Shown: in pieces, positions 53,205 through 63,998 of the stretch
Position numbering within the stretch: the first letter of the stretch is position 1
How the letters are laid out: each line of letters starts with the position of its first letter
IMG/VR virus record: IMGVR_UViG_3300012347_000364
Span: 158,826 to 222,825 of that record
Source: a virus
Lineage: Duplodnaviria; Heunggongvirae; Uroviricota; Caudoviricetes
Reading direction: 5' to 3' (one strand)
Length of the DNA: 64,000 bases
Notes under the pieces: model-generated
Told to the model about the DNA's origin: nothing
Databases searched by the model: none
What the model saw: only the letters and a program-made list of their open reading frames with translations
Program-made: the position numbers and the translations under genes

Positions 53205-53233
53205 TTGACTTGTTCGATAAATTATCTTACAAT
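53205..53233 (+). promoter_or_regulatory. Sigma70-type promoter heading the tRNA region
   Basis: TTGACT-17 nt-TACAAT with an AT-rich UP element. Confidence 0.75.
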
Positions 53234-53310
53234 AGACACTTAGACAGAAATAAATTAGAAATATTTTGTTTCTGACGTCTTCAACCTTAGAAAGTTAGCT
53301 ATATACTAAC

Positions 53311-53424
53311 ATGAAAACAATTTCTTTAAACCTCTTGGCGACATATCGCCAGCCCGCTGAGCATAATAATGGCTCATGGGATTGCTTTACCCCAAGTATT
53401 GGGGTTGCGGGGTCTAAAGGATAA
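53311..53424 (+). CDS. Putative attenuator leader peptide (37 aa, all 20 amino acids)
   Basis: MKTISLNLLATYRQPAEHNNGSWDCFTPSIGVAGSKG*; its 3' end is complementary to the 5' arm of the downstream terminator; no clear SD. Confidence 0.6.
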   Translation: MKTISLNLLATYRQPAEHNNGSWDCFTPSIGVAGSKG

Positions 53425-53460
53425 GTTTAGTGTAAGTATACACCTAGATTCTTTCTAAGG

Positions 53461-53493
53461 ACCCCCGAAGACGCAAGTTTCCGGGGGTTTTTT
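53461..53493 (+). terminator. Intrinsic terminator of the putative attenuator
   Basis: ACCCCCG-A-AGAC[GCAA]GTTT-C-CGGGGGT followed by TTTTT. Confidence 0.8.
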
Positions 53494-53587
53494 GTTGGGT
53501 TAGAAGTTTTTGGCATACCAACTAAGTTGGTGCTGTTTTAGTAAAAACGTTCTTCGGAACAACGATCATTCACAATTTGGATCACAT

Positions 53588-53662
53588 ACTCGATTCGTCT
53601 ATCGGTTAGGACATCAGGTTTTCAACCTGAGAAGAGGGGTTCGACTCCCCTATCGAGTGCCA
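53588..53662 (+). tRNA. tRNA-Glu(TTC)
   Basis: Cloverleaf, TCAGG-TTTTCAA-CCTGA, CCA end. Confidence 0.9.
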
Positions 53663-53755
53663 TATTTAAGCATGTTGGCTTGAACATGGGGTAATACCTT
53701 TGCCTAACGGCTCTCGGATACGCCCCTCAGTATTTCCAATATGTTTAAATATGGC
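53659..53755 (+). ncRNA. Long-stem CCAUA element 1
   Basis: GCCATATTTAAGCATGTTGG pairs with CCAATATGTTTAAATATGGC. Confidence 0.6.
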
Positions 53756-53756
53756 G

Positions 53757-53785
53757 TTGACTTTAAAAAGTCTTTATGTTATAAT
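53757..53785 (+). promoter_or_regulatory. Sigma70-type promoter (internal to tRNA array)
   Basis: TTGACT-17 nt-TATAAT with extended -10 TG. Confidence 0.8.
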
Positions 53786-53793
53786 AAACGCAT

Positions 53794-53867
53794 GCGGGAT
53801 TAGTTTAGTGGTAAAACACTTTCCTTCCAAGTAAGAGTTGCCGGTTCGATTCCGGCATCCCGCTCCA
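53794..53867 (+). tRNA. tRNA-Gly(TCC)
   Basis: Cloverleaf, loop CTTCCAA, CCA; U-U mismatch in anticodon stem. Confidence 0.9.
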
Positions 53868-53872
53868 ACAAT

Positions 53873-53947
53873 GCCCTTGTATCCTTAGTGGTAGAGGTCC
53901 TGTTTTGTAAGCAGGGTGTGGTGGTTCGATTCCATCCTGGGGCACCA
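53873..53947 (+). tRNA. tRNA-Thr(TGT)
   Basis: CCTGT-TTTGTAA-GCAGG, CCA. Confidence 0.88.
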
Positions 53948-54090
53948 TATTGAAGTATATTATTATCGCTCGTAAGGCGACCACCCGTGATAACATGGAT
54001 CATTCTTCGATGTTATCAATGCGAACACAAGGTGATGACTCCCCAAGATATAGAGAATGTGAGAGGGAGATGGTAGTGTATTTCAATATG
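53946..54090 (+). ncRNA. Long-stem CCAUA element 2
   Basis: CATATTGAAGTATATTATTATC pairs with GATGGTAGTGTATTTCAATATG. Confidence 0.6.
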
Positions 54091-54188
54091 ATGTGAATTC
54101 ATTGTGGCTATAGTGTGTACGGGCTGCGTCTCCATGCGGCTGCGGAGACTCATCTGGAGATGGCGACCAGACACATCATAAACAATTT

Positions 54189-54264
54189 GCGGCATTAGCT
54201 CAATCGGGAGAGCACAGCACTGTCACTGCTGAGGTAAGGGGATCGAAACCCCTATGTCGCGCCA
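54189..54264 (+). tRNA. tRNA-Asp(GTC)
   Basis: CAGCA-CTGTCAC-TGCTG, GCCA. Confidence 0.9.
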
Positions 54265-54274
54265 AGTATTTTTT

Positions 54275-54348
54275 ACCTGGATAGTTAAATGGCATAACAG
54301 TCGGCTGATAACCGGCCATCACAAGTTCGATTCTTGTTCTAGGTACCA
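54275..54348 (+). tRNA. tRNA-Ile(GAT)
   Basis: GTCGG-CTGATAA-CCGGC, ACCA. Confidence 0.9.
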
Positions 54349-54361
54349 GGGAAAGTTTTAT

Positions 54362-54437
54362 ACCGTAGAGTTCACCTGATGGTGATACTTCACTGTCTAT
54401 GAAGATGCGGCGGGTTTGATTCCCGTCTACGGTGCCA
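54362..54437 (+). tRNA. tRNA-Asp(GTC), atypical second copy
   Basis: CTTCA-CTGTCTA-TGAAG (U37); T-loop TTTGATT; GCCA. Confidence 0.75.
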
Positions 54438-54444
54438 AGTTTGT

Positions 54445-54523
54445 TGCGGGGTAGAGGAGTCCGGTCGTCCTCGCCAGTCTCATAAGCTGGAGATCGCAGG
54501 TTCAAATCCTGCCCCCGCTACCA
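54445..54523 (+). tRNA. tRNA-Met(CAT), initiator-like
   Basis: 1:72 mismatch, GCGGGG acceptor, loop CTCATAA; lacks the three G-C anticodon-stem pairs. Confidence 0.8.
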
Positions 54524-54530
54524 GTTTTAT

Positions 54531-54605
54531 TCCGAAGTAGCACAGCGGTAGTGCAGTTGACTGTTAATCAATTGGTCGCTGGTTCGATCCCAGCCTTCGG
54601 AGCCA
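54531..54605 (+). tRNA. tRNA-Asn(GTT)
   Basis: GTTGA-CTGTTAA-TCAAT, GCCA. Confidence 0.92.
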
Positions 54606-54610
54606 AATAT

Positions 54611-54684
54611 GCGTGGTTAGTTTAATGGTAAAATCAGACGTTGCCAACGTTTAGTTAAGAGTTCGATTCTCTTACCCCGCACCA
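54611..54684 (+). tRNA. tRNA-Gly(GCC)
   Basis: AGACG-TTGCCAA-CGTTT, ACCA. Confidence 0.85.
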
Positions 54685-54778
54685 AGTTATGAGGTGACGC
54701 TACAGTCGTAACTGCTCGAGCAGGAGAAGACAAAAAGCCTAAGCATGCAGATGAGCTCGCATGGCCTCGATTAGTTTT

Positions 54779-54837
54779 AGGATAGTTACAGCAATTAAAA
54801 AGCTAACTATGGTTGTCTAGCGACAAAAGCTATCCTG
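54779..54837 (+). ncRNA. AGGAU-clamp RNA 1 (minimal insert)
   Basis: AGGATAGTT-ACAGCAA ... AGCTATCCTG. Confidence 0.6.
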
Positions 54838-54846
54838 TTATTTTAT

Positions 54847-54928
54847 GGATGAGATGCTCTAATGGTAGGGCAGCAGGCTGTAACCCTGTGGCTTCGGCAA
54901 GTAGGTTCGATCCCTACCTCATCCACCA
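54847..54928 (+). tRNA. tRNA-Tyr(GTA)
   Basis: GCAGG-CTGTAAC-CCTGT, long V arm, ACCA. Confidence 0.88.
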
Positions 54929-54933
54929 CTCGT

Positions 54934-55019
54934 GGAGTCGTAGGAAAATTGGTAACCCCAGTGGACTGTAAATCCGCCGCCCTTGTGCACTACTGGTTCA
55001 ACTCCAGTCGGCTCCACCA
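54934..55019 (+). tRNA. tRNA-Tyr(GTA), second copy
   Basis: GTGGA-CTGTAAA-TCCGC, long V arm, ACCA. Confidence 0.88.
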
Positions 55020-55024
55020 ATTAT

Positions 55025-55098
55025 CTCGGATTAGTTTAGTGGTAAAACTCGTGGTTTGGGACCATGGGTCGGGTGTTCGATTCACCCATCCGAGACCA
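55025..55098 (+). tRNA. tRNA-Pro(TGG)
   Basis: CGTGG-TTTGGGA-CCATG, ACCA. Confidence 0.88.
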
Positions 55099-55266
55099 AG
55101 AATTAGTCGGCGTAATTAACCGAAAAGTAAGTAGTAGACGATCTTGCCACTTCGGTCGTCTTTGCAGTGTATACTGCGTCAGCAAAGGGCAACTGGATGC
55201 TGAGAAACACTGGGGTAAGAGTCCCAATTGATGGTGTGCACTAATTTAACGCAAAGAGAATTCTTT

Positions 55267-55346
55267 GCTCCGTAGAATCCGAGCCAGGTGCACGGACTTG
55301 ACTGTTAATCAATGACTAGCTGGGTTCGAGTCCCAGATACGGAGCA
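55267..55346 (+). tRNA. Atypical tRNA-Asn(GTT)-like RNA without encoded CCA
   Basis: TTGA-CTGTTAA-TCAA, T arm CTGGG-TTCGAGT-CCCAG; acceptor helix extends to about 14 bp. Confidence 0.6.
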
Positions 55347-55359
55347 AAGAGTTTTTAAT

Positions 55360-55434
55360 GGGGGCAGTAGAGGGCTACGGTGGTTCCTTGCAAGAATCAT
55401 GTCTAGATCGGTTCGATACCGACGGTCTCCACCA
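55360..55434 (+). tRNA. tRNA-Ala(TGC), atypical D arm
   Basis: GGTTC-CTTGCAA-GAATC, G3-U70, ACCA. Confidence 0.72.
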
Positions 55435-55473
55435 ATTTTATACTCGATTATAGTAAAGTATAGTCGATTATAC

Positions 55474-55548
55474 ACCCGGTTAGCTCAGGGGTAGAGCACA
55501 CGCTTGATAAGCGTTAGGTCGCAAGTTCAAATCTTGCACTGGGTACCA
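55474..55548 (+). tRNA. tRNA-Ile(GAT), second copy
   Basis: ACGC-TTGATAA-GCGT, ACCA. Confidence 0.88.
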
Positions 55549-55553
55549 GTTTT

Positions 55554-55620
55554 AGGATAGGTTCTGCAATCTTATAGAACACCAAACTTTTAATTTGACA
55601 CGTTCGTCAACACTATCCTG
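55554..55620 (+). ncRNA. AGGAU-clamp RNA 2 enclosing a Lys(UUU)-like anticodon stem-loop
   Basis: AGGATAG..CTGCAA ... CAAA-CTTTTAA-TTTG ... CTATCCTG. Confidence 0.6.
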
Positions 55621-55630
55621 TTGTATTTGT

Positions 55631-55706
55631 GGGGGTATAGCTCATCTGGTAGAGCAGGTGCTTTGCAAGCATCAGGTGGCGGGTTCGAGTCCTGTTGCCT
55701 CCACCA
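55631..55706 (+). tRNA. tRNA-Ala(TGC)
   Basis: Canonical cloverleaf, G3-U70, ACCA. Confidence 0.92.
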
Positions 55707-55804
55707 AGGTTTCGGCCGAAAGAAAACTGTTCGACGGGCTCTATGGGGTCGGAGCGTCCTAGAAAAGAACAGGGGTACGAGTCCCAAGTTCCCGCCAAAT
55801 TTAT

Positions 55805-55879
55805 GTACCATTAGACTTCTGGTGAGGTCATCACCCTTTCAAGGTGACTAGACGGGATCGTAACCCGTATGGTACTCCA
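55805..55879 (+). tRNA. tRNA-Glu(TTC), second copy
   Basis: TCACC-CTTTCAA-GGTGA; T-loop ATCGTAA. Confidence 0.82.
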
Positions 55880-55880
55880 A

Positions 55881-56178
55881 GGCAAATAGTAATCTTGTTT
55901 TGATGCATGGTTACTCAATGTTTGTTAGTTTCAATGGGTGCTATAGAAACTAACCCAAACACTAAGACAACACTTAGTAAGATGAGTAGACGGAAACCGA
56001 CCCAGGAGAGACTTCCTGGGCTTCACAGTGCGTGGACACGATGAGAAACGCAAGGTGACGAACGATAAGCAAAGTCGGTCCAGTAGGGGTAAGAAAAGTG
56101 TTGTCGGCGGAAAGAACTGCCGGACGTCAGAAGTTATGAGTGCGCTAGCATTTGATAACGCCGTGTATACGTACCACA
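55881..56178 (+). ncRNA. Candidate ~300-nt structured ncRNA of unknown class
   Basis: No credible ORF; long-range pair GACAACACTT/AAGTGTTGTC and several local hairpins. Confidence 0.45.
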
Positions 56179-56179
56179 T

Positions 56180-56254
56180 GGATTGTAAACTTTGAAGATG
56201 AAGTCCCGGCTCTTAACCGGCGAGAAGACAGTTTGAGTCTGTCACGATCCACCA
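56180..56254 (+). tRNA. tRNA-Lys(CTT), atypical D/T loops
   Basis: CCGG-CTCTTAA-CCGG; T-loop TTTGAGT; ACCA. Confidence 0.75.
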
Positions 56255-56404
56255 TATTATAATACATTTTTGTCTACATGCGGGGTAAGGTTCCTCGGTA
56301 GGTGTGCCAGAACGAGAATAGTCTTGCAAGGTAAAGCTCGTGGTAACACATCAAAAACCTACAGATGGCGTTGACAACCATTTGGGAGTGTATTATAATA
56401 TGGT
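56251..56404 (+). ncRNA. Long-stem CCAUA element 3
   Basis: ACCATATTATAATACATTTTT pairs with GGGAGTGTATTATAATATGGT. Confidence 0.6.
56371..56399 (+). promoter_or_regulatory. Consensus sigma70 promoter overlapping the 3' arm of element 3
   Basis: TTGACA-17 nt-TATAAT. Confidence 0.8.
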
Positions 56405-56409
56405 ATAAT

Positions 56410-56483
56410 CTGGGTATAGGATAATGGTAGTCAGTGAGTCTTGGATACTCGCAGCGCAAGTTCGATTCTTGCTACCCAGACCA
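56410..56483 (+). tRNA. tRNA-Pro(TGG), second copy with A37
   Basis: TGAGT-CTTGGAT-ACTCG, ACCA. Confidence 0.8.
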
Positions 56484-56492
56484 AAAGAATTA

Positions 56493-56568
56493 GCTCGCGA
56501 AGTATTAGTTGGTGGTATGCCGCCCTCGTAACGCGGAGGATTGGGTTCGAGGCCCGACGTGAGCACCA
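56493..56568 (+). tRNA. tRNA-Thr(CGT)
   Basis: CCGCC-CTCGTAA-CGCGG, ACCA. Confidence 0.75.
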
Positions 56569-56571
56569 AGT

Positions 56572-56762
56572 TTTGTAAGTGTTAGCAAGTTGAAGTACGT
56601 TGAAAAGATTCTTCGAAGGTCTTTAGATGAAAAAAGGTTCGGGTGCGATTCCCCTTGTCCCTAGGATGGAGAACTTATGGATACCCAAGTAACGTACCGA
56701 ACTCCCTGTGCACATAACTGATGGGTGAATGGTTCCGATAACGTGGTGGAACAGCTTACAAA
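56572..56762 (+). ncRNA. Structured RNA with tRNA-like arms (possible clamp-family relative)
   Basis: Closing stem TTTGTAAGT/GCTTACAAA, TAGCAA after the 5' arm, AAGATT-CTTCGAA-GGTCTT and GGG-TGCGATT-CCC hairpins. Confidence 0.45.
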
Positions 56763-56770
56763 TTTAATAT

Positions 56771-56854
56771 GCCCCTGTGGTGGAATGGCAGACACGCTGG
56801 TCTTAGAAACCAGTGCCGAAAGGCGTGCGAGTTCGAGTCTCGCTGGGGGCACCA
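56771..56854 (+). tRNA. tRNA-Leu(TAG)
   Basis: CTGGT-CTTAGAA-ACCAG, long V arm, ACCA. Confidence 0.92.
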
Positions 56855-56972
56855 TATTGAAGTATTCTTGGCATAAGTCAAAGCGGGAGAAGACGTTTAG
56901 TATCTGCAGATGCGAATGCGTCAGTGGATCTATCCCCTCCTATGCCTGCATTCGAGAGTATTTCAATATGGT
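56851..56972 (+). ncRNA. Long-stem CCAUA element 4
   Basis: ACCATATTGAAGTATTCTTG pairs with CGAGAGTATTTCAATATGGT. Confidence 0.6.
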
Positions 56973-57042
56973 AGGCGTAGTTGCAACGTGAAGGGTTCCA
57001 TGGACCTGGAAGCCTACCACCAAATTTTAATATAAGGACAGT

Positions 57043-57303
57043 ATGAATATTATTCCAATTCGTGATAAGGTTGCAGTTGTGCAATTGAAAAACAGCACAA
57101 CTACCGACAGTGGTATTATTTTACAAGGCGATGTCTCGCAAGAAGCGAAGCGCGGTAAGGTAATCGCAGTCGGTCCAGAAGTACAAGATGTTAAGGAAGG
57201 CGACGTAGTCTTACTTGACTGGGTACATGCAATTCAATCCAAGATTGAGAATATCCCATTCTTCCTTATTAAAGAACAGCACGTGATTGCTGTTGTAGAG
57301 TAA
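57043..57303 (+). CDS. groES: Co-chaperonin GroES (Cpn10)
   Basis: P..DKV.V, T.SGII mobile loop, G.V.AVGP, VK.GD.V, E..V.AV. Confidence 0.9.
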   Translation: MNIIPIRDKVAVVQLKNSTTTDSGIILQGDVSQEAKRGKVIAVGPEVQDVKEGDVVLLDWVHAIQSKIENIPFFLIKEQHVIAVVE

Positions 57304-57308
57304 TTTAA

Positions 57309-57384
57309 GCCCTTGTAGCTCAGGTGGTAGAGCAGTGGATTGAAAATCCATGTGTCGGCGGTTCGACTCCGTCCAGGGGCACCA
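57309..57384 (+). tRNA. tRNA-Phe(GAA)
   Basis: GTGGA-TTGAAAA-TCCAT, ACCA. Confidence 0.93.
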
Positions 57385-57509
57385 AGTTTTGTAGAGACAC
57401 GTATTGCCAATCTGTTGCAAGTAATACACAGTATGAAAGCTTCGCCGGTGTGTCCCGTCTATGTTCAGAGTTTGGCACTGGACTTACTACAAATTAGTTT
57501 AGACCATTT

Positions 57510-57628
57510 AGGTTCATTTCAGCAACTACAAATAATCTTTCTATGAAAAAGAGGGTCTGGGTTCGAATCCCAGCTCAGGTTTGGTCTCCTGATGTGGTGT
57601 AATGGTAGCACGATAAAAGTTGAACCTG
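57510..57628 (+). ncRNA. AGGAU-clamp RNA 3: circularly permuted tRNA body (anticodon ATG)
   Basis: AGGTTCA..CAGCAA, then anticodon arm, T arm, loop-closed acceptor, D arm, then TGAACCTG. Confidence 0.75.
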
Positions 57629-57632
57629 TTAT

Positions 57633-57706
57633 ATCTCGGTAGTGTAATGGCAGCATACCAGTCTCCAAAACTGTTGGTCGGGGTTCGAGTCCCTGCCGGG
57701 ATGCCA
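57633..57706 (+). tRNA. tRNA-Trp(CCA) with 4-bp anticodon stem
   Basis: CCAGT-CTCCAAA-ACTGT (C27-U43 mismatch); U11-A24; GCCA. Confidence 0.88.
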
Positions 57707-57713
57707 AGAATAT

Positions 57714-57805
57714 GGATAGTGATGCAGCTGGGTTGGTCCGGCGACGAGCCTTGAAAACTCGGTTCTCAGAAATGGGATGGGGTTCGACTCCTCCGCTATC
57801 CGCCA
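57714..57805 (+). tRNA. tRNA-Ser(TGA), 8/4-type fold
   Basis: Acceptor GGATAGTG/CGCTATCC, T stem GGGG/CCTC, long V arm, GCCA. Confidence 0.78.
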
Positions 57806-57872
57806 TGTTATGGGACAAAAATATAATTCTGTAAAGAATTTATTCTGCAATTTAAATTGTCCCGCCATTTTT

Positions 57873-57989
57873 AGGATACTTACAGCAATGTCTATTAGAC
57901 ACGTTGGTTCGAATCCAACATTTGGGGCTTCCCAAATTCGCTCAGCGGTTGAGCAAACGACTTATAATCGTTCACTAAAAAGTATCCTG
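57873..57989 (+). ncRNA. AGGAU-clamp RNA 4: circularly permuted tRNA body (anticodon TAT)
   Basis: AGGATACTT-ACAGCAA, T arm, ATTTGGG[GCTT]CCCAAAT acceptor, D arm, AACGA-CTTATAA-TCGTT, AAGTATCCTG. Confidence 0.8.
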
Positions 57990-57998
57990 TTGTTTTGT

Positions 57999-58076
57999 TC
58001 CCCCTTCGCCTAGTCTGGCCTAAGGCACTGGTCTTTGAAATCAGTATCGTTGGTTCGAATCCAACAGGGGGTGCCA
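57999..58076 (+). tRNA. tRNA-Gln(TTG)
   Basis: CTGGT-CTTTGAA-ATCAG, weak 1:72 pair, GCCA. Confidence 0.88.
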
Positions 58077-58085
58077 ATGTTTTAT

Positions 58086-58200
58086 GTCGCGGTGGTGTAA
58101 TGGTAGCACGCTATAAAGGTGATCCTGATTAGGATACGTGCAGCATACATTTTCCACTGTCAATGGAGATGACCAGGTTCGATTCCTGGCCGCGACGCCG
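58086..58200 (+). tRNA. tRNA-Asp(GTC)-like RNA with a ~41-nt clamp-motif insertion between D and anticodon arms
   Basis: Acceptor GTCGCGG/CCGCGAC, D arm, insert containing ATCCTG-ATT-AGGATAC-GTG-CAGCA, TTCCA-CTGTCAA-TGGAG, T arm; ends GCCG. Confidence 0.7.
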
Positions 58201-58466
58201 ATCATGTCATGGTGTAATGAGAATGCACGGGATCGCCACATAAGTCCGTCGAAGATAAGGCGGTGGAACAAGGTTCAGGTGTGGTAGGAACCCACAACGA
58301 CATACAATTTTTCGAGATAGACGTAGAGGTTGAGTCCCTTGTATTCTAGTGCCCTTAACTTGAGCATGACACGCCAGTAGAATTGTACAAGGTAGTCTTA
58401 AACTCCCTCATACGAGACAACCCAGCGAGTCCTTGAGAAAGATAGCTGGTCTCTCGAAACCCTTTT

Positions 58467-58570
58467 AGGATGACTGCTGCAACATAAAATTACTTCCACC
58501 ATAATCGGGAGGCCAGCCCGCAGGGGGCATTGTCGTAGGGTTCGAGTCCCGGTCTTGACAAATCATCCTG
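58467..58570 (+). ncRNA. AGGAU-clamp RNA 5
   Basis: AGGATGA..CTGCAA ... GGG-TTCGAGT-CCC T-loop hairpin ... TCATCCTG. Confidence 0.6.
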
Positions 58571-58579
58571 TTATACGAT

Positions 58580-58670
58580 GGAAGGTATAGTCGATGTGGT
58601 ATCGACGCCCGCCTGGAAAGCGGGAGACTGGTTAACGCCGGTCAGAGTTCGACTCTCTTACCTTCCTCCA
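58580..58670 (+). tRNA. tRNA-Ser(GGA), 8/4 fold with 6-bp D stem (allo-tRNA-like)
   Basis: GGAAGGTA/TACCTTCC, GTCGAT/ATCGAC, CCCGC-CTGGAAA-GCGGG, AGAG/CTCT. Confidence 0.78.
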
Positions 58671-58797
58671 TATTCAAACATACTCATCATTGGTAGCAGA
58701 CTTCGAGCAACTTGGTTAATAGTTGAGTCTCGCTATGAAGCAGCCTAACCAGCGCGGTGAAAATCCCCCTGACGGAGAGAGTGTGTTTGAATATGGA
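58667..58797 (+). ncRNA. Long-stem CCAUA element 5
   Basis: TCCATATTCAAACATACTC pairs with GAGTGTGTTTGAATATGGA. Confidence 0.6.
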
Positions 58798-58830
58798 TAG
58801 CGCGTTGCTAGATTGAAATAATTGAAGTAG

Positions 58831-58859
58831 TTGCCTTTTGAGGTGACTCGTTGTATAAT
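58831..58859 (+). promoter_or_regulatory. Sigma70-type promoter
   Basis: TTGCCT-17 nt-TATAAT, ending 8 nt before tRNA-Ser(CGA). Confidence 0.6.
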
Positions 58860-58867
58860 AATTAATT

Positions 58868-58955
58868 GGAAGATTAACTGAGTGGGACTCAGCGCTGTTT
58901 CGAAAGCAGTTGGACTCAGCAATGGGTTGGGGCTCGGGACCTCATTCTTCCGCCA
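58868..58955 (+). tRNA. tRNA-Ser(CGA), atypical D and T arms
   Basis: GCTGT-TTCGAAA-GCAGT, D stem CTGAGT/ACTCAG, T-loop CTCGGGA, GCCA. Confidence 0.7.
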
Positions 58956-58986
58956 CAATAACAATAACAATAACAAGGGAGCTACT

Positions 58987-59127
58987 ATGTCACGTAAAGA
59001 TACGCTAAACAAAGCATATGGTAGCATACCAAAAGAGGTGTACGCTGGTTTCAATACGGATTGGATACCAGAGTTTCGTGGAATAAAGTTTATATGGGTA
59101 AAGACTAAAAGGTTCTTTACTCGTTGA
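58987..59127 (+). CDS. Small hypothetical protein (46 aa)
   Basis: AAGGGAG RBS; MSRKDTLNKAYGSIPKEV... Confidence 0.55.
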   Translation: MSRKDTLNKAYGSIPKEVYAGFNTDWIPEFRGIKFIWVKTKRFFTR

Positions 59128-59134
59128 GATAGAT

Positions 59135-59224
59135 GGAGCGTGGGCCGGATGGTAAGGCAGCGGATTGCTAATCCGTACAATCACGAAAGTGGTTGATAGG
59201 GTTCGACTCCCTAACGCTCCGCCA
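59135..59224 (+). tRNA. tRNA-Ser(GCT)
   Basis: GCGGA-TTGCTAA-TCCGT, long V arm, GCCA. Confidence 0.9.
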
Positions 59225-59294
59225 AATTGTGTCGCGACTAATCAGGGGTGCTTGCGTTCTCGCCCTGTTAAAAATAAAAATATGACGCAGCCAC

Positions 59295-59386
59295 ACCTCG
59301 ATAGTTTAATGGTAAAACGGCGGATTTATATCCCGTAAGCAACAGATAATTGGTTCATCCGAGTTCGAATCTCGGTCGAGGTACCA
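59295..59386 (+). tRNA. tRNA-Ile(TAT)-like with long variable region
   Basis: ACCTCGA/TCGAGGT acceptor, loop TTTATAT, 22-nt variable region, ACCA. Confidence 0.7.
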
Positions 59387-59387
59387 A

Positions 59388-59570
59388 TCACTTTTTAATC
59401 TTCGCCATTAGTTTGTGGCGGATGTTAGAATCATTATATGAAAGAGATGCCAGCAGTCCAATCAGGTATCCTTTTTCATATAATGATTTAGCACGTTCAT
59501 TATTGAATGTACGCTTACTGCATGCTTTGTCGAGCAGTTTGTGGATTAGTTGTACGTGCATGTCAAACAT
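59388..59570 (-). CDS. Small antisense-orientation hypothetical protein (60 aa)
   Basis: MFDMHVQLIHKLL...LYEKGYLIGLLASL...; fills the gap between two tRNAs; CATAAATA late-promoter-like motif 5 nt upstream on the - strand. Confidence 0.5.
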   Translation of the reverse strand: MFDMHVQLIHKLLDKACSKRTFNNERAKSLYEKGYLIGLLASLSYNDSNIRHKLMAKIKK

Positions 59571-59582
59571 AGAAATATTTAT

Positions 59583-59669
59583 GTCTGGGTGGCAGAGCGA
59601 TCGAATGCGACGGATTGCAAATCCGTATCCGAAAGGGCACCGTCGGTTTAAATCCGACCCCAGATTCCA
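59583..59669 (+). tRNA. tRNA-Cys(GCA) with long variable arm
   Basis: ACGGA-TTGCAAA-TCCGT, U73 discriminator, V arm TCC-GAAA-GGG. Confidence 0.78.
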
Positions 59670-59674
59670 AACAT

Positions 59675-59758
59675 GCGAGAGTGGTGGAATGGCATACACA
59701 GCAGACTTAAAATCTGCCGCCGAAAGGCTTGCGGGTTCGAGTCCCGCCTCTCGCACCA
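59675..59758 (+). tRNA. tRNA-Leu(TAA)
   Basis: GCAGA-CTTAAAA-TCTGC, long V arm, ACCA. Confidence 0.92.
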
Positions 59759-59764
59759 AGTTTT

Positions 59765-59962
59765 AGGATCCTTTCAGCAACACAAATGCATTGAAAGCCT
59801 CGTGTCGGTGGTGCGAATCCACCCTCCTCCACTAAGAGTACATTATGGAGTTTACCCGCTACACTACTAAAGGATCGCAACCTGTAGTAATAAAAAACGT
59901 GTGGTATTGTACTCTTAGTGGAGGAGTAGCTCAGTTAGTAGAGCAGAGTAAAGTGGATCCTG
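59765..59962 (+). ncRNA. AGGAU-clamp RNA 6: permuted tRNA with acceptor extended by a long stem
   Basis: AGGATCC..CAGCAA, 3' tRNA half (..GCCTC GTGTC GGTGG TGCGAAT CCACC CTCCTCCA), long hairpin, 5' half (GGAGGAG TA GCTC AGTTAGTA GAGC A GAG), GGATCCTG. Confidence 0.75.
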
Positions 59963-59971
59963 TTGTTTAAT

Positions 59972-60048
59972 GCGTCTTTAGCTTAACTGGAGAAAGCACT
60001 GGCCTACGAAGCCGGGGGATGGGGATTCGAATTCCTCAGGACGCACCA
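59972..60048 (+). tRNA. tRNA-Arg(ACG)
   Basis: CTGGC-CTACGAA-GCCGG, ACCA. Confidence 0.88.
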
Positions 60049-60052
60049 ATTT

Positions 60053-60129
60053 GCCTCTTTAGCTCAACTGGATAGAGTCCTGTCCTTCGAAGTCAGTTGT
60101 TGGGGGTTCGAATCCCTCAGGGGGCACCA
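60053..60129 (+). tRNA. tRNA-Arg(TCG)
   Basis: CTGTC-CTTCGAA-GTCAG, ACCA. Confidence 0.85.
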
Positions 60130-60130
60130 T

Positions 60131-60205
60131 GGTGGTATGGCGTAGATGGATGCGCACCGGCTTCATAAGCCGAGGAGGTTGGATCGATACCAACTACCAC
60201 CACCA
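60131..60205 (+). tRNA. tRNA-Met/Ile2(CAT)
   Basis: CGGC-TTCATAA-GCCG, ACCA; elongator Met vs lysidine-Ile not resolvable by eye. Confidence 0.8.
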
Positions 60206-60225
60206 ATTAGCGAATAAGTGTCATG

Positions 60226-60253
60226 TTGACATTTGTTCAAATCAATGTATAAT
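60226..60253 (+). promoter_or_regulatory. Sigma70-type promoter
   Basis: TTGACA-16 nt-TATAAT. Confidence 0.7.
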
Positions 60254-60274
60254 TAATGTTTTAGAGGAACGAAA

Positions 60275-60406
60275 ATGAAGACGAAACCGATCGTCAAGGA
60301 ACGTAACTGCTTCGTTCGCTTGGCACTATTCCGAAAAGCAGGGTCGCACCGCAAGTCCAATAAGGCTTTGCGTAAAGCGGCAAACCAAATGCCTTTGGGT
60401 CTATAG
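60275..60406 (+). CDS. Small basic protein (43 aa) whose stop codon lies inside tRNA-Lys
   Basis: GAGGA RBS; MKTKPIVKERNCFVRLALFRKAGSHRKSNKALRKAANQMPLGL*; TAG equals tRNA positions 8-10. Confidence 0.6.
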   Translation: MKTKPIVKERNCFVRLALFRKAGSHRKSNKALRKAANQMPLGL

Positions 60407-60474
60407 TTTAACGGCATAAAACATCCGGCTTTTAACCGGTAAGACTCTCGGTTCGAATCCGAGTAGACCCACCA
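60397..60474 (+). tRNA. tRNA-Lys(TTT)
   Basis: GGGTCTA/TAGACCC, CCGG-CTTTTAA-CCGG, ACCA. Confidence 0.88.
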
Positions 60475-60556
60475 TATAAAAACATACTCGCTGAAGTTGG
60501 TTCAGTTAGACAGGGAGATCCAATTGCCTATGTTGTTGAGTGTGTTTTTATATGGT
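60471..60556 (+). ncRNA. Long-stem CCAUA element 6
   Basis: ACCATATAAAAACATACTC pairs with GAGTGTGTTTTTATATGGT. Confidence 0.6.
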
Positions 60557-60605
60557 TAATGTTATCGGCCGGTAACAACCATATTCGGAAGTCATGACTC
60601 CGAAG

Positions 60606-60681
60606 AACTCGCGGTCTTCTAATGGTAGGAAATCCTCGCTAAAGAGGCTAATGCAGGTTCGATTCCTGTCCGCAATGAGTT
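60606..60681 (+). ncRNA. Degenerate tRNA-like RNA
   Basis: D loop TAATGGTA, CCTC-GCTAAA-GAGG arm, GCAGG-TTCGATT-CCTGT T arm, bulged acceptor, no CCA. Confidence 0.45.
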
Positions 60682-60683
60682 TG

Positions 60684-60786
60684 CATATAAAAGTGCATCG
60701 AGCCAAGACGTCGTACTCTTGGTCTTCGAGATAATGTTCGGTGAGCGTTAGCACAATAACTGATCTAATCGGTGTACTTTTATATG
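60684..60786 (+). ncRNA. Long-stem element 7
   Basis: CATATAAAAGTGCATCGA pairs with TCGGTGTACTTTTATATG. Confidence 0.55.
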
Positions 60787-60832
60787 GTAGTCTCTTAGTA
60801 CAATGGTCACACGCCCTTGCTAAGATGTTATT

Positions 60833-60927
60833 GCCATAGTTGAATACATTCCCGTACTGATGAGGGTGGTAGCCTCATATCGTGCAGGACTAAAGAACTA
60901 CTACGTCTGAATGTATTCACCTATGGT
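60833..60927 (+). ncRNA. Long-stem element 8
   Basis: GCCATAGTTGAATACATTC pairs with GAATGTATTCACCTATGGT. Confidence 0.55.
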
Positions 60928-60930
60928 TAT

Positions 60931-61008
60931 GCCCACATGGACAAATTGGCAAAGTCGCTTCTCTCAAAAGGAAGAGCTCTCTCGGTTCGACTCCGAGTGT
61001 GGGTACCA
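60931..61008 (+). tRNA. tRNA-Leu(CAA) lacking the long variable arm
   Basis: CTTCT-CTCAAAA-GGAAG, 6-nt V region, ACCA. Confidence 0.8.
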
Positions 61009-61011
61009 ACT

Positions 61012-61080
61012 TTATACACAGATGTTAGTTCGATTCTAACCCTGATGAAGAGTAGCATAATATGGTAATGCAGTGTATAA
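61012..61080 (+). ncRNA. Permuted tRNA-elbow mimic (YrlA-like topology)
   Basis: Closing stem TTATACAC/GTGTATAA encloses T arm, short loop-closed acceptor and D arm; no anticodon loop. Confidence 0.65.
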
Positions 61081-61130
61081 TTCGAGGCCTCGCGCTGACT
61101 TGTCGCGTATAATGAGATAAATTACAAGTC

Positions 61131-61236
61131 ACTTTTCTAGAACACAATGAGGCGAACGCGACGCCTTTATGTGGAGCATAGCTGGGCCCTTGGCCTGGTC
61201 ACCAGTTCAATTCTGGTAATTGTGTTCTAGAAAAGT
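61131..61236 (+). ncRNA. tRNA-like module within an 18-bp stem
   Basis: ACTTTTCTAGAACACAAT/ATTGTGTTCTAGAAAAGT perfect inverted repeat enclosing an ACCAG-TTCAATT-CTGGT T arm. Confidence 0.5.
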
Positions 61237-61237
61237 C

Positions 61238-61311
61238 GCTTCCGTAGTTCAATGGTAGAACGATGCTTTGACATGGCATAGACAGAAGTTCAATTCTTCT
61301 CGGAAGCACCA
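61238..61311 (+). tRNA. tRNA-Val(GAC)
   Basis: ATGCT-TTGACAT-GGCAT, ACCA. Confidence 0.85.
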
Positions 61312-61318
61312 AACAGGT

Positions 61319-61431
61319 TTTGCGCATTAGTGTAACGGTAGCATTGCCCCGAGAGGGTTGCTTTTACGGTTCAATTCCGTTTGATGGTGGTCCAAGCAAA
61401 TTGAGGATAGGGTTCAATTCCCTAGCGCAAA
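61319..61431 (+). ncRNA. tRNA-like RNA with two T-loop hairpins
   Basis: TTTGCGC/GCGCAAA closing stem, D arm GTGT-AACGGTA-GCAT, ACGG-TTCAATT-CCGT and TAGGG-TTCAATT-CCCTA. Confidence 0.5.
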
Positions 61432-61439
61432 TTAATTAT

Positions 61440-61514
61440 GGTGGCTATAGTGTAGTGGAAGCACCCGAGTCTGTGAAACTCGTAGTACGGGATCGTTACC
61501 CGTTAGTCACCCCA
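61440..61514 (+). tRNA. tRNA-His(GTG)
   Basis: G-1/C73, CGAGT-CTGTGAA-ACTCG, CCA. Confidence 0.88.
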
Positions 61515-61525
61515 AGTATAAGTAT

Positions 61526-61756
61526 ATGATGTATAAAGTAAAAGGTTCAGTAGTAACATTCGATGTAATGACATTGGATGAAGCGATGCATACTGCTAAG
61601 ATAATGAACGAGTTTGTGACTATCACAGGTCCGGAGTTTGAAGTCGTAGGCATGTTCGGTGTAGATACTGTTAAGGACGGTAAGTGTCCGGACGGTGTTG
61701 CATACGACTGGAATAAAGCATCTAGAATAGGTGCTCCAAAAAGAGTAAGAGCATGA
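61526..61756 (+). CDS. Hypothetical protein
   Basis: 76-aa ORF, ATGA-coupled to the next gene. Confidence 0.6.
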   Translation: MMYKVKGSVVTFDVMTLDEAMHTAKIMNEFVTITGPEFEVVGMFGVDTVKDGKCPDGVAYDWNKASRIGAPKRVRA

Positions 61757-61920
61757 AATCCCCAGTCTTCGGTGCGCGTGCCGGTAACGTCAAGCTCAGA
61801 GGTAAGAAGACAAAGTTGATGTCGTGCAAGTGTTGCCACATGATCAACTGTAAATGGGAACATCGCTTTAAACAAGCAGAAAAAGAAATCAAGGAGAGCT
61901 CTAATGAAACGAGTAATTGA
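61753..61920 (+). CDS. Small basic Cys-containing protein (55 aa)
   Basis: MKSPVFGARAGNVKLRGKKTKLMSCKCC...; overlaps both neighbours. Confidence 0.5.
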   Translation: MKSPVFGARAGNVKLRGKKTKLMSCKCCHMINCKWEHRFKQAEKEIKESSNETSN

Positions 61921-62581
61921 GATTCGAGCCGCTGAAGGCGGAGAAGACAGTAAGTTGTTTGTGACCGATTTAGCACAAGCATACCAACGTTTAGGAACGA
62001 AGTTCGGCTGAACTACCCGCCTGATAGATGTACGTCTTGGCGAGTGTAGTTTAGAAGTTCAAGGCGCAGATCTATCCGGCTTAGATAACGAGCCAGGAGG
62101 ACACCGTATTCAGCGTGTACCTCCAACAGAACGTAAAGGTCGCGTTCATACAAGTACAGTCACTGTTGCCGTAATCGATGGTGAAAATAAGTACCAAACA
62201 TCCAACATCAAAGACTCTGACCTACGAGTCGAATGGTACTCTGGTACTGGCGCTGGTGGTCAACACCGTAATAAGCATCAGAACAGCTGTAGAATCACCC
62301 ATATACCATCGAACACTGTCGCGACGGCACAATGCCGCAGTAGACAGAATAGTTACAATGAAGCGATGGCTTCTATCCGCAGCCGTGTTGACTTTTCCAA
62401 CGAGATGCGTTATAATCAGAGTGTAGCGATCGATAGAAAGCTTCAAGTTGGTTCTGGTATGCGTGGCGACAAAATGCGCACTTATCGATTCCAGGATGAT
62501 GTTGTTAAAGATCACCAAACCAATCGATCTGCTAGTGTCAAGAAAGTGCTAGCGGGTAATTTTAATTTATTGTGGAGCTAA
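61904..62581 (+). CDS. Class I peptide chain release factor (RF1-like, no domain 1) with in-frame UGA at codon 36
   Basis: AGGAG RBS; IEIRAAEGGEDS.LF...L...Y, TGA 62009-62011, then E.GGHRIQRVPPTERKGRVHTSTVTVAV, GTGAGGQH.NK..NS.RITHIPS, RSR.NS, GSG.RGDK.RTY.F..D.V.DH. Confidence 0.85.
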
Positions 62582-62582
62582 T

Positions 62583-63092
62583 ATGGAAACGATTCGTTGG
62601 ATCGAAAACATTGCTTGGGACGACTGTAAGAACGGCTGGCATATGGATGCTGGTCCCAATGCTATGTTGATTCAGATTATGGATCCATGTAGCACATTCC
62701 CTACTCCTAAGCGTGAGTTTAAGGAGGTCCATCAGTTTGAATTTCTAGACATTGAGGATTCGGACGTTAAGATGGATCCTAATATGGGAGAATTTGCAAT
62801 TACAGACGAACAAGCACAAAAACTTGTTGACTTATTGCAAAAAGCAAAAGACAATAGCATGAATGTGATCGTTCATTGCTTTGCAGGTATCTGCCGAAGT
62901 GGTGCTGTATGTGAGTTGGGTGTAATGCTTGGCTTCACGGCTACAGATCGTTACAGACAACCTAACCTCCGAGTCAAACACAAAATGATGAAGTGCTTGG
63001 GTTGGACTTATGACGAAGATGAAAAATCAGTCGGCACCGGTGGAAGCATCAGTGCCGGTGGGATTCTTATCCCTTATAAAGATATGGAGTAA
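62583..63092 (+). CDS. Cys-based (PTP/DSP-fold) phosphatase
   Basis: VHCFAGICRSGAV (CX5R) loop; F.D acid loop. Confidence 0.85.
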   Translation: METIRWIENIAWDDCKNGWHMDAGPNAMLIQIMDPCSTFPTPKREFKEVHQFEFLDIEDSDVKMDPNMGEFAITDEQAQKLVDLLQKAKDNSMNVIVHCFAGICRSGAVCELGVMLGFTATDRYRQPNLRVKHKMMKCLGWTYDEDEKSVGTGGSISAGGILIPYKDME

Positions 63093-63095
63093 TAT

Positions 63096-63707
63096 ATGTC
63101 AAACGTGTTCGTTGTAAGCGATACGCACTTCGGTCACGTTGGCGTATGTCGCTTCATGCAAAATGATGGAGTAACTAAACTCCGTCCCTGGGACAGTCCG
63201 GAAGAAATGGATGAGGCAATGGTTAAGTCTTGGAACGAGACTGTTGGCCCAAACGATAAAGTATATCATCTCGGTGATGTGGTAATTAACCGACGTGCTC
63301 TTAGCACTGTTGCAAGACTTAATGGTGACAAGGTCCTTATTAAAGGGAACCACGACATCTTCCGTCTTGAAGAGTATACTACATACTTCAGAGATGTTAG
63401 AGCGTATCATGTGATGAGTGGAATGATCCTCAGCCACATTCCGGTTCACGCCGATAGCCTTGCTAGATTTGGCTGCAACATCCATGGCCACCTTCACGCC
63501 AACCGTGTAATGAAGCCAATCGGTGTTGATGCTCGAACTGGTGTGGTAAAGTATGGCAATCAAATTGATCCTAGATACTTCAACGTCTCTGTCGAGCAGA
63601 TTGGTTTTAAGCCAATTGCCCTCGAAGAGCTCAAGAAGCGTATTATTGAGCAGGGTGGTGAAATATCTTTCCGTCAAGGAAATGGTTCAGCACCCGTTGT
63701 CATGTAA
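63096..63707 (+). CDS. Calcineurin-like metallophosphoesterase
   Basis: SDTHFGH, HLGD, GNHD, SH.P, HGHLH. Confidence 0.9.
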   Translation: MSNVFVVSDTHFGHVGVCRFMQNDGVTKLRPWDSPEEMDEAMVKSWNETVGPNDKVYHLGDVVINRRALSTVARLNGDKVLIKGNHDIFRLEEYTTYFRDVRAYHVMSGMILSHIPVHADSLARFGCNIHGHLHANRVMKPIGVDARTGVVKYGNQIDPRYFNVSVEQIGFKPIALEELKKRIIEQGGEISFRQGNGSAPVVM

Positions 63708-63723
63708 CCTATAAGGATATATA

Positions 63724-63915
63724 ATGTCTGAGAAGTATTCAAAGTTTGAAGAAGTTGTTTTGTCAATGAAAGACGACTTCGAAAAGTTTTATGATAAAGA
63801 AAATAATGCTGCCGGTGCTCGCGTCCGTAAGCACTTGCAGACTTTAGCAGTTCTCTGTAAAGAAGGTCGTAAAGACGTTACAGAAGTTAAGGCCGCTCGC
63901 GCTGCTGCTAAGTAA
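63724..63915 (+). CDS. Histone H1-like (Hc1-type) small protein
   Basis: DFEKFY.K.N.AAG.R.RK.LQ.L...K..RK.V pattern. Confidence 0.7.
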   Translation: MSEKYSKFEEVVLSMKDDFEKFYDKENNAAGARVRKHLQTLAVLCKEGRKDVTEVKAARAAAK

Positions 63916-63923
63916 CTATTAAT

Positions 63924-63998
63924 GCCTTGTTAGCTCAGGGGTAGAGCGTCTCCTTTACACGGAGAGGGTCGGCGGTTCGAAACCGTCACAAGGTACCA
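63924..63998 (+). tRNA. tRNA-Val(TAC)
   Basis: TCTCC-TTTACAC-GGAGA, ACCA. Confidence 0.92.

Follow-up and report, generated by a model that had tools for sequence, protein, structure and literature searches.

The DNA analysed here, which we call the window, is a stretch of 64,000 nucleotides (positions 158,826 to 222,825) at the end of a phage record that is complete, circular and 222.8 kb long, IMG/VR IMGVR_UViG_3300012347_000364 (record coordinates are labelled G000). Between positions 53,205 and 63,998 of the window lies a tRNA array headed by a leader-peptide attenuator. We lean, by a little beyond an even chance, towards reading this region as a stress-gated, modular locus for translation support in a T4-like phage, in which a leader-gated tRNA platform carries independently assorting cargo. 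Three cargo modules, namely a basic peptide, a cassette of a conserved open reading frame (ORF) named ORF76, an RF1-type release factor (RF), a phosphatase and a phosphoesterase, and a set of handle RNAs, would plug into arrays independently, two of them being self-gated. The common trigger would be a loss of decoding capacity, of which a tRNA-cleaving host defence would be the likeliest, though not the sole possible, cause.

A first-pass annotation of this DNA had described three sequence-encoded sensors within 11 kb, an all-amino-acid attenuator, a peptide gene whose stop lies inside a tRNA and a UGA-interrupted RF, together with a full tRNA set. All of these were confirmed, and the evidence for each is given below.

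A leader containing all twenty amino acids precedes the tRNA array

The leader and its regulatory elements are as follows.

53205-53233, plus strand: sigma-70-type promoter for the leader (10/12 match)
53311-53424, plus strand: leader ORF of 37 codons, with all 20 amino acids and 30 different codons
53409-53465, plus strand: antiterminator, formed when the end of the leader ORF (53409-53424) pairs with the terminator 5' arm at 53448-53465 (fold z -3.0)
53457-53493, plus strand: intrinsic terminator, a hairpin with a U-run ending at 53493, the sole strong one between 53.2 and 64 kb

All 20 amino acids are expected by chance in 37 codons with a frequency of 0.2% (proteome composition) or 1.8% (uniform composition). 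The same design was sought in 160 loci, which were fetched via the RF and peptide genes. Among 28 array starts, chosen for a terminator and an upstream ATG frame regardless of composition, 20 had frames with all 20 amino acids (chance about 1%, range 0.03-2%), and the remaining frames contained 19 (four frames) or 18 (four frames) amino acid types. Additionally, 7 further frames with 20/20 amino acids precede weaker terminators. The 33 leaders analysed form 15 clusters that are mutually without sequence similarity, and family lengths range from 25 to 57 codons; throughout the 33, the distance from the stop codon to the U-run is 52-72 nt. The antiterminator duplex of the family reaches -18.8 kcal/mol, compared with -6.7 kcal/mol in other windows of the same ORFs. 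Moreover, W, C, H and Y mostly occur once each per leader, and the leaders cover 27.0 of 32 wobble classes versus 25.1 expected, with values above expectation in 29 of the 33. Of near-complete genomes with large arrays, 10 were examined and every one has a leader; nearly all of the related large tRNA arrays begin with this design, and a sigma-70-type promoter lies within 260 nt of 26 of the 33 homologous leaders. In summary, a translatable short ORF stands at a fixed spacing before mutually exclusive antiterminator and terminator structures, and this design is conserved, non-random and under selection. The leader RNA matched no Rfam family.

From this anatomy, a switch can be predicted. A ribosome that reaches the leader stop would cover the antiterminator strand and transcription would end, whereas a ribosome slowed at any codon would free the antiterminator and allow extra transcription of the array, beyond the output of the internal promoters described below. 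The nearest leader homologue by clamp-loader kinship (L215:3290) has 17 amino acid types and a promoter directly behind its terminator, and is perhaps a decaying switch.

A basic peptide gene ends inside tRNA-Lys(UUU)

60226-60253, plus strand: internal promoter directly before the peptide gene (12/12 match; present in only 13/61 homologues)
60275-60406, plus strand: gene of a 43-aa basic peptide of the RN..V..AL.RKAG.H.K..KA.R family, with its stop inside tRNA-Lys
60397-60474, plus strand: tRNA-Lys(UUU) holding the peptide stop

The TAG codon of the peptide gene occupies positions 8-10 of tRNA-Lys(UUU), and if the tRNA is cut at its 5' end, the 40 codons that remain have no stop. The tRNA 5' end precedes the peptide stop in 55 of 59 distinct loci with homologues, as against 1 of 315 cases among the controls, eight other array genes. 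The stop-bearing tRNA is nearly always tRNA-Lys(UUU), and the stop falls at nine tRNA positions (6 to 28) and in different frames; the peptide frame of Gemmobacter caeni passes through a tRNA-Leu into a tRNA-Tyr. This stop-in-tRNA design is conserved and under selection. The peptide family is unannotated, comprises at least 671 clusters and has invariant R, N, V, RKAG, H, K, K and R residues. It lacks the KGKGS motif of ArfA (PF03889) and has RKAG.H.K instead; a weak lead to DUF7230 was obtained in a protein atlas (0.87).

Excision of tRNA-Lys by RNase P would leave a non-stop mRNA for the peptide, and tagging by tmRNA would destroy the product unless trans-translation were saturated. The surviving 40-mer would then act together with a host release factor, and by analogy it is most likely an adaptor of the ArfA/BrfA/ArfT kind, with a putative ribosome rescue activity. 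It is important to mention that the phage itself encodes a two-piece tmRNA of the betaproteobacterial type (G000 113.5 kb; L082:970-1450), which could keep the non-stop peptide off.

An RF1-type release factor gene is interrupted by a conserved UGA codon

The third gated element lies in a cassette downstream of the array, behind which an Hc1-like ORF follows.

61526-61756, plus strand: conserved 76-aa ORF (ORF76), with a fold that received no assignment; adjoins the RF gene in 67/80 loci
61904-62581, plus strand: RF1-type release factor gene without domain 1, with an in-frame TGA at codon 36 (62009-62011)
62583-63092, plus strand: CX5R (DSP/PTP-fold) phosphatase-like ORF, served by a promoter of its own (62388) and found no more than 10 kb from the RF gene in 72/80 loci
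63096-63707, plus strand: calcineurin-like metallophosphoesterase
63724-63915, plus strand: Hc1 histone-H1-like ORF with a promoter at 63697

The RF gene has the motifs PPT (at 62120) and GGQ (at 62255), and the TGA is the only break in its frame. When this codon is read as Trp, a protein of 225 aa is obtained that matches domains 2-4 of RF1, starting from RF1 residue ~107-115, and Thermotoga RF1 has a Trp at the position aligned with the codon-36 TGA. The TGA is kept in 81 of 81 phage RF copies (67-77% identity), in which other Trp positions are TGG. It is also present in six bacterial contigs (45-60% identity) and in plasmids of Bosea and Rhizobium. A second RF scan gave the identical 80 loci. 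Two distant copies differ. On a Variovorax megaplasmid (L303:13959-14663; 42 tRNAs), the codon-36 site has been lost and a TGA occurs ~10 codons later, and the gene is annotated as two genes. In the copy of a Hahella metagenome-assembled genome (L090:8102-8765), codon 36 is TGG and a CTT-TAG-C +1 frameshift site occupies codons 41-42. Since the gate has been moved in the former and replaced in the latter, selection acts on a stop-dependent gate and not on one nucleotide.

Codons 37-41, immediately after the UGA (62012-62026), are fixed in DNA sequence: codon 39 is CGC and codon 41 is ATA in 64 of 67 copies, far more fixed than other synonymous sites, and ATA makes up 16% of the Ile codons in this genome; the near-invariance of codons 39 and 41 points to a cis signal. 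The pairs CTG-ATA, CTA-ATA and TTG-ATA put a +1-frame stop after the UGA in 59 of the 67 copies. On the Rhizobium plasmid (L304:14001-16916), the UGA-containing RF gene is followed by two partial C-terminal duplicates.

As regards class, the predicted product has the PxT and GGQ motifs of RF1, lacks domain 1 and scores below a full-length equivalog: 182-189 bits to prfA (cut-offs 400-423) and 35 bits to prfH TIGR03072 (cut-off 167). A search of the phage genome for RtcB found none. The CUU-stop-C +1 site of the prfB type is absent, as the frame runs unbroken through GGY-TGA, and is present only in the Hahella copy. Three other readings of the gene were rejected. The phage uses genetic code 11 and not code 4 (TGA as Trp), because TGA is a normal stop (among 220 long ORFs, 71 stop at TGA and 133 at TAA) and Trp is otherwise TGG (671 codons). 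A pseudogene is at odds with the same stop in all 81 copies and with three full-length database proteins that all require TGA as Trp. Finally, in the window no in-frame ATG, GTG or TTG that would permit re-initiation occurs between the UGA and GGQ.

UGA is read by RF2 alone, and factors of the RF1 type recognise UAA and UAG, so that the simplest logic of this gate is cross-sensing. Weak RF2-dependent termination would yield the full-length RF1-type protein via UGA readthrough, and this protein would back up termination at UAA, the main stop of the phage. While the in-frame gate itself is directly visible, its readthrough and the codon specificity of the product are predicted.

The phosphatase-like gene and ORF76 travel with the RF gene, though not strictly: the former occurs in 3 of 80 peptide loci and the latter in 8 of 80, compared with 72 and 67 of the 80 RF loci. 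A fold search with ORF76 was uninformative (best Z 4.0). As for the end-healing enzymes proposed by the first-pass annotation, the two candidate genes are present, and their assignment to this role follows from fold family only; the ligase and kinase of the phage are unlinked, ~77-82 kb along the genome.

Handle RNAs and a Ro60-fold protein

The array contains seven handle ("clamp") RNAs, in which a 7-bp helix and a CAGCAA sequence surround an anticodon loop, a partial tRNA or a tRNA permuted at varying points. The gene of a Ro60-fold protein lies just past the window end, since the locus extends onto the record start of the circular genome; this gene is missing from the island as first annotated.

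54779-54837, plus strand: handle RNA, short form
55554-55620, plus strand: handle RNA whose anticodon loop is of the Lys(UUU) type
57510-57628, plus strand: handle RNA around a circularly permuted tRNA (anticodon, T, closed acceptor and D arm)
57873-57989, plus strand: handle RNA around a tRNA that has its permutation elsewhere (T, closed acceptor, D and anticodon arm)
58086-58200, plus strand: linear tRNA-Asp in which an inside-out handle insertion separates the D and anticodon arms
58467-58570, plus strand: handle RNA that holds the anticodon, variable and T arms
59765-59962, plus strand: handle RNA with a permuted tRNA, in which a long hairpin closes the acceptor
G000 1498-2922: Ro60-fold DUF2828/DUF7788 gene

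Among 111 handle elements, helix positions 6-7 covary. A canonical anticodon loop is found in 30 of 51 short elements, compared with 1.1 in shuffled sequences, and Lys, Thr, Arg and Asn loops are over-represented. The DUF2828/DUF7788 gene has a handle RNA 76 nt upstream, and about half of 24 loci of this kind show the same distance. The exact handle was present in 4 of 4 complete genomes with a DUF2828 gene and in 0 of 5 without it (Fisher p 0.008, uncorrected for kinship). The 13 best matches of the predicted DUF2828 structure are all Ro60 proteins, with the phage phiLo protein first.

No known Rfam family matched the handle RNAs; the best score to YrlA (Rfam RF02553) was 25 bits versus 69, and the GNCGAA motif was found in 0 of the 111 elements. 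A search of the phage genome with TROVE PF05731 was empty. The handle RNAs are therefore best read as Y-RNA-like partners of the Ro60-fold protein and not as members of YrlA. They would bind the DUF2828/DUF7788 protein as decoys or repair scaffolds. The many unchargeable tRNA mimics of the first-pass annotation correspond to these Y-RNA-like RNAs; unchargeability may not extend to all tRNA-like elements, several degenerate ones of which end in CCA.

Beyond the Ro60-fold gene, RNase H-like (PF04308), AhpC, AhpD-like and Hsp20 genes (L081:3002-6003) extend the stress cluster. A weak ROSE_3 match is located there (L081 5236-5298), and the RNase H-like gene occurs in 40 of 80 peptide loci.

The tRNA array, its internal promoters and the phage

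Sliding clamp, clamp loader, RegA and dCMP deaminase genes, recognised from sequence, lie upstream of the tRNA locus, and the phage is therefore T4-like; it is of the freshwater type. The betaproteobacterial type of its tmRNA suggests that the host is probably betaproteobacterial. In all, ARAGORN identified 34 tRNAs, covering all 20 amino acids. The remaining features of the region are listed here.

53588-61514, plus strand: tRNA array of 33 ARAGORN genes for all 20 amino acids, with degenerate tRNA-like elements and 20-25 bp stems
53757-53785, plus strand: internal promoter that restarts transcription one tRNA behind the terminator (11/12 match, extended -10)
56371-56399, plus strand: internal promoter (12/12 match)
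57043-57303, plus strand: GroES-like ORF inside the array (Pfam Cpn10, E 2e-13)
57633-57706, plus strand: tRNA-Trp(CCA) with a C27-U43 mismatch and U11-A24, features that are independent of the UGA gene
63924-63998, plus strand: tRNA-Val(UAC)
54361-54437, 55269-55345, 55360-55434, 56165-56255, 57713-57803, 58868-58955, 60608-60677: degenerate or atypical tRNA-like elements, below default thresholds
53659-53756, 53944-54095, 56251-56405, 56851-56972, 58667-58800, 60471-60560, 60668-60790, 60824-60930, 61130-61238: stems

With those at 60226, 62388 (for the phosphatase-like ORF) and 63697 (for the Hc1-like ORF), the two promoters above make five internal sigma-70 promoters, all matching the type of the phage early promoters. 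The stems are near-perfect, most of them begin in tRNA CCA ends, and each encloses a different structured loop; they are candidate RNase III-like processing sites or small RNA cassettes. Several of the degenerate tRNA-like elements, those with CCA ends, may be functional. A 45-aa ORF in the array (58990-59127) has homologues in at least 8 other arrays and no family match. The phage tRNA-Trp was rejected as a dedicated UGA suppressor, because a 27:43 mismatch is seen in 6 of the 18 tRNAs linked to RF genes and in 10 of the 36 from peptide loci, and U11-A24 is general.

Past tRNA-Val, the circular continuation holds a tRNA with a CUA anticodon, a tRNA-Thr, a handle RNA and the Ro60-fold gene. 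The first of these (G000 130-204; L081:130-204) has a CCA end and would read amber codons in a code-11 genome in which TAG stops are rare; among other loci it was found only in L107 and L154.

Assortment of the modules and alternative explanations

The region had first been taken for a single coordinated counter-defence island, with the attenuator as master switch and the peptide, RF, mimics and phosphatases acting jointly, for example the peptide and the phage RF as one rescue machine. The co-orientation of all parts within 11 kb with no terminator after 53493, the tRNAs found in 17 of 18 RF loci with 8 kb upstream, and the presence of a leader-like ORF, the peptide and the UGA-containing RF gene in both G025 and the Gemmobacter caeni array (the latter with Pth2- and Thg1-like genes) all agree with such an island. 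However, among 11 near-complete genomes RF and peptide genes occur together in 2, the RF alone in 4, the peptide alone in 4 and neither in 1; of 40 peptide loci with 8 kb of downstream sequence, 3 contain an RF gene, and the Ro60-like module is independent of both. Moreover, given the five internal promoters, the attenuator is not a master gate here; the RNA ligase (G000 77 kb), kinase (82 kb) and tmRNA (~113 kb) are far from the array, and the RtcB search was negative. Joint action of all parts thus appears distinctly improbable. The integrated island is supported in part, since the cargo sits in leader-headed arrays and shares a theme of translation support; the independent distribution that the first-pass annotation itself regarded as speaking against coordination largely applies to the cargo. 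As for its further proposal of a counter-measure to host defences, the sequence does not tie the locus to defence over starvation or the phage's own tRNA demand. A search of the genome for T4 Rnl1 was empty, and was run without a positive control.

The array of Gemmobacter caeni DSM 21823 (L088 and L206:2365-2517, minus strand) comprises 34 tRNAs, with a 50-aa ORF containing 20/20 amino acids ~400 nt upstream and no U-rich terminator. It also holds YqeY-like and RF-like genes and provides a cultured model.

Two further explanations concern the purpose of the gates. They might match tRNA and factor output to demand, in starved, slow-growing freshwater hosts or where host RNA is degraded by the phage. 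The leaders probe amino acids and wobble classes with even weight, as expected of a starvation sensor, and the elements track array size (leader and peptide with 28 tRNAs, none found with 4-11 tRNAs); GroES, Hsp20 and AhpC/D nearby suggest a general stress, and the mycobacterial whiB7 upstream open reading frame (uORF) works in this way (10.1101/2023.06.02.543512). Starvation nevertheless leaves unexplained the RNAs that display Lys, Thr, Arg and Asn anticodon loops and the fixed link between the peptide and tRNA-Lys(UUU). This tRNA is a classic target of anticodon nucleases (PrrC and colicin-type tRNases). In addition, phage tRNAs, ligases and ROT/TROVE proteins have been read as counter-defence (PMC7824862), and we consider such supply homeostasis a possible but unlikely explanation. 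Alternatively, the UGA, the stop in the tRNA and the terminator might merely hold toxic or sub-stoichiometric products low and constant; the RF or the peptide may then disturb host translation rather than rescue it. UGA is the leakiest bacterial stop; strong ribosome-binding sites and promoters precede the RF and peptide genes, peptide homologues with normal stops exist, and the RF1-type specificity gives no direct feedback on UGA. Yet a weak ribosome-binding site would be simpler, the gates have been rebuilt independently as stop-dependent devices (the moved UGA and CTT-TAG-C), and constant dosing gives no sense to the 20-amino-acid content of unrelated leaders. Simple dosing is therefore a rather improbable account.

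Several observations weigh against the modular, stress-gated locus that we favour. A 1:2 protector helix is predicted in the window, but in the leader family its signal is not above that of synonymous shuffles (mean z 0.14), and its conservation is unsupported. In equilibrium folding, termination falls modestly with a stalled ribosome (median 0.62-0.93 versus 1.0; 0.60-0.96 in the window). Internal promoters are present in 26 of 33 homologous arrays, and in ~10 (about a third of the arrays) one lies directly behind the terminator. The peptide and 10 homologues had no match in Pfam, NCBIfam or the PDB, nor to the ArfA, BrfA or ArfT profiles. The cultured phages ACP17 and V45v66 carry peptide homologues with intact stops and away from tRNA arrays; therefore the peptide gate is not universal. 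RF genes of several alphaproteobacteria stand without a tRNA array. Finally, the genome sample is small, was picked through the same genes and is uncorrected for kinship, and hence shows the lack of an obligate linkage rather than strict independence.

A more far-reaching version, which we put forward tentatively and consider the less likely, is a layered kit in which failures of elongation, of trans-translation and of RF2 termination would each be read by the ribosome and each be met by a remedy, with Ro60/Y-RNA-like nuclease decoys in addition. The remedies would be the complete set of tRNAs, rescue adaptors of a new class, with a non-stop mRNA that arises via tRNA processing, and a minimal RF1-type factor made via UGA readthrough. 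Such a kit would extend over large phages and the mobile tRNA arrays of Proteobacteria, and would include a second Ro60/Y-RNA-like family that displays anticodon loops.

Why phages carry tRNA arrays, and when these are used, is a long-standing open question, which the switches make testable: the leader would be a natural reporter of the decoding failures that the phage expects, and every gate predicts a specific inducing condition. If the proposed functions are true, the locus would provide tRNA genes with a universal-codon attenuator, bring RF-dependent rescue factors to four families by adding one regulated by RNase P, supply a minimal release factor that is gated by readthrough, and give DUF2828 a role, that of a Ro60 paralogue paired with an RNA family of its own. 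Parts of it are available in culture, in Gemmobacter caeni DSM 21823, Variovorax plasmids and phage ACP17. Additionally, the UGA gate explains thousands of truncated or mis-coded database entries for the RF gene.

Comparison with known systems

The leader, the peptide gate, the UGA-gated RF and the handle RNAs are undescribed in the papers found by our literature search, outside which most subscription journals lay. The RNA repair and tRNA systems of jumbo phages are similar in holding tRNA sets, ligases, phosphoesterases, ROT/TROVE, Pth2 and Thg1 (PMC7824862, section 3.4.9), and have been read as measures against host tRNases; that survey includes no leader attenuator, non-stop peptide or stop-gated RF, and in the present phage neither the ligase nor the kinase is linked with the array.

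The handle RNAs resemble the Y RNAs of the Ro60/Rsr and YrlA systems, in which a Ro60-fold protein is encoded beside RNAs with a closing helix between the 5' and 3' ends (PMC4201824; for phiLo, PMC12135203), and they share with YrlA the permuted tRNA domains and closed acceptor stems (PMC4201824). They differ in that the protein is of the DUF2828/DUF7788 type and not TROVE PF05731, and in that the handle consists of a 7-bp helix and CAGCAA; unlike YrlA, they keep their anticodon arms and occur in many copies with different cargo.

Like ArfA, BrfA and ArfT, the phage peptide has ~40 residues, is very basic and carries a K.G motif followed by His and Lys, and as in ArfA and BrfA the product would come from a non-stop mRNA (PMC8012679, PMC6881298, PMC6299226). 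ArfT has no programmed non-stop gate (same sources), similar to the homologues in ACP17 and V45v66. In the phage, the non-stop mRNA would arise by tRNA excision, not by RNase III or a terminator, and the putative adaptor has H-x-K in place of the KH motif.

In the autoregulation of prfB (RF2), too, an in-frame stop serves as the gate of a release factor gene. In the phage gene, a predicted zero-frame readthrough at a Trp position takes the place of the +1 frameshift, and the product is of the RF1 type with a PxT motif behind a gate made of an RF2 codon. PrfH likewise lacks domain 1 (PMC6514570), whereas the phage RF scores far lower to prfH than to prfA and has no RtcB partner found in the genome.

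The whiB7/wblC uORF and the attenuators of the trpL, hisL and thrL type share with the phage leader a short ORF and an antiterminator that overlaps the 5' arm of a terminator, with stalling as the predicted cause of read-through in the phage. The closest tested system, by analogy, is the whiB7 uORF of M. smegmatis, which contains 19 of the 20 amino acids and whose composition determines what is sensed (10.1101/2023.06.02.543512). By comparison, the phage leaders are 25-57 codons long, contain the rare amino acids about once each and cover the wobble classes broadly, and they precede tRNA arrays in which they are bypassed by internal promoters.

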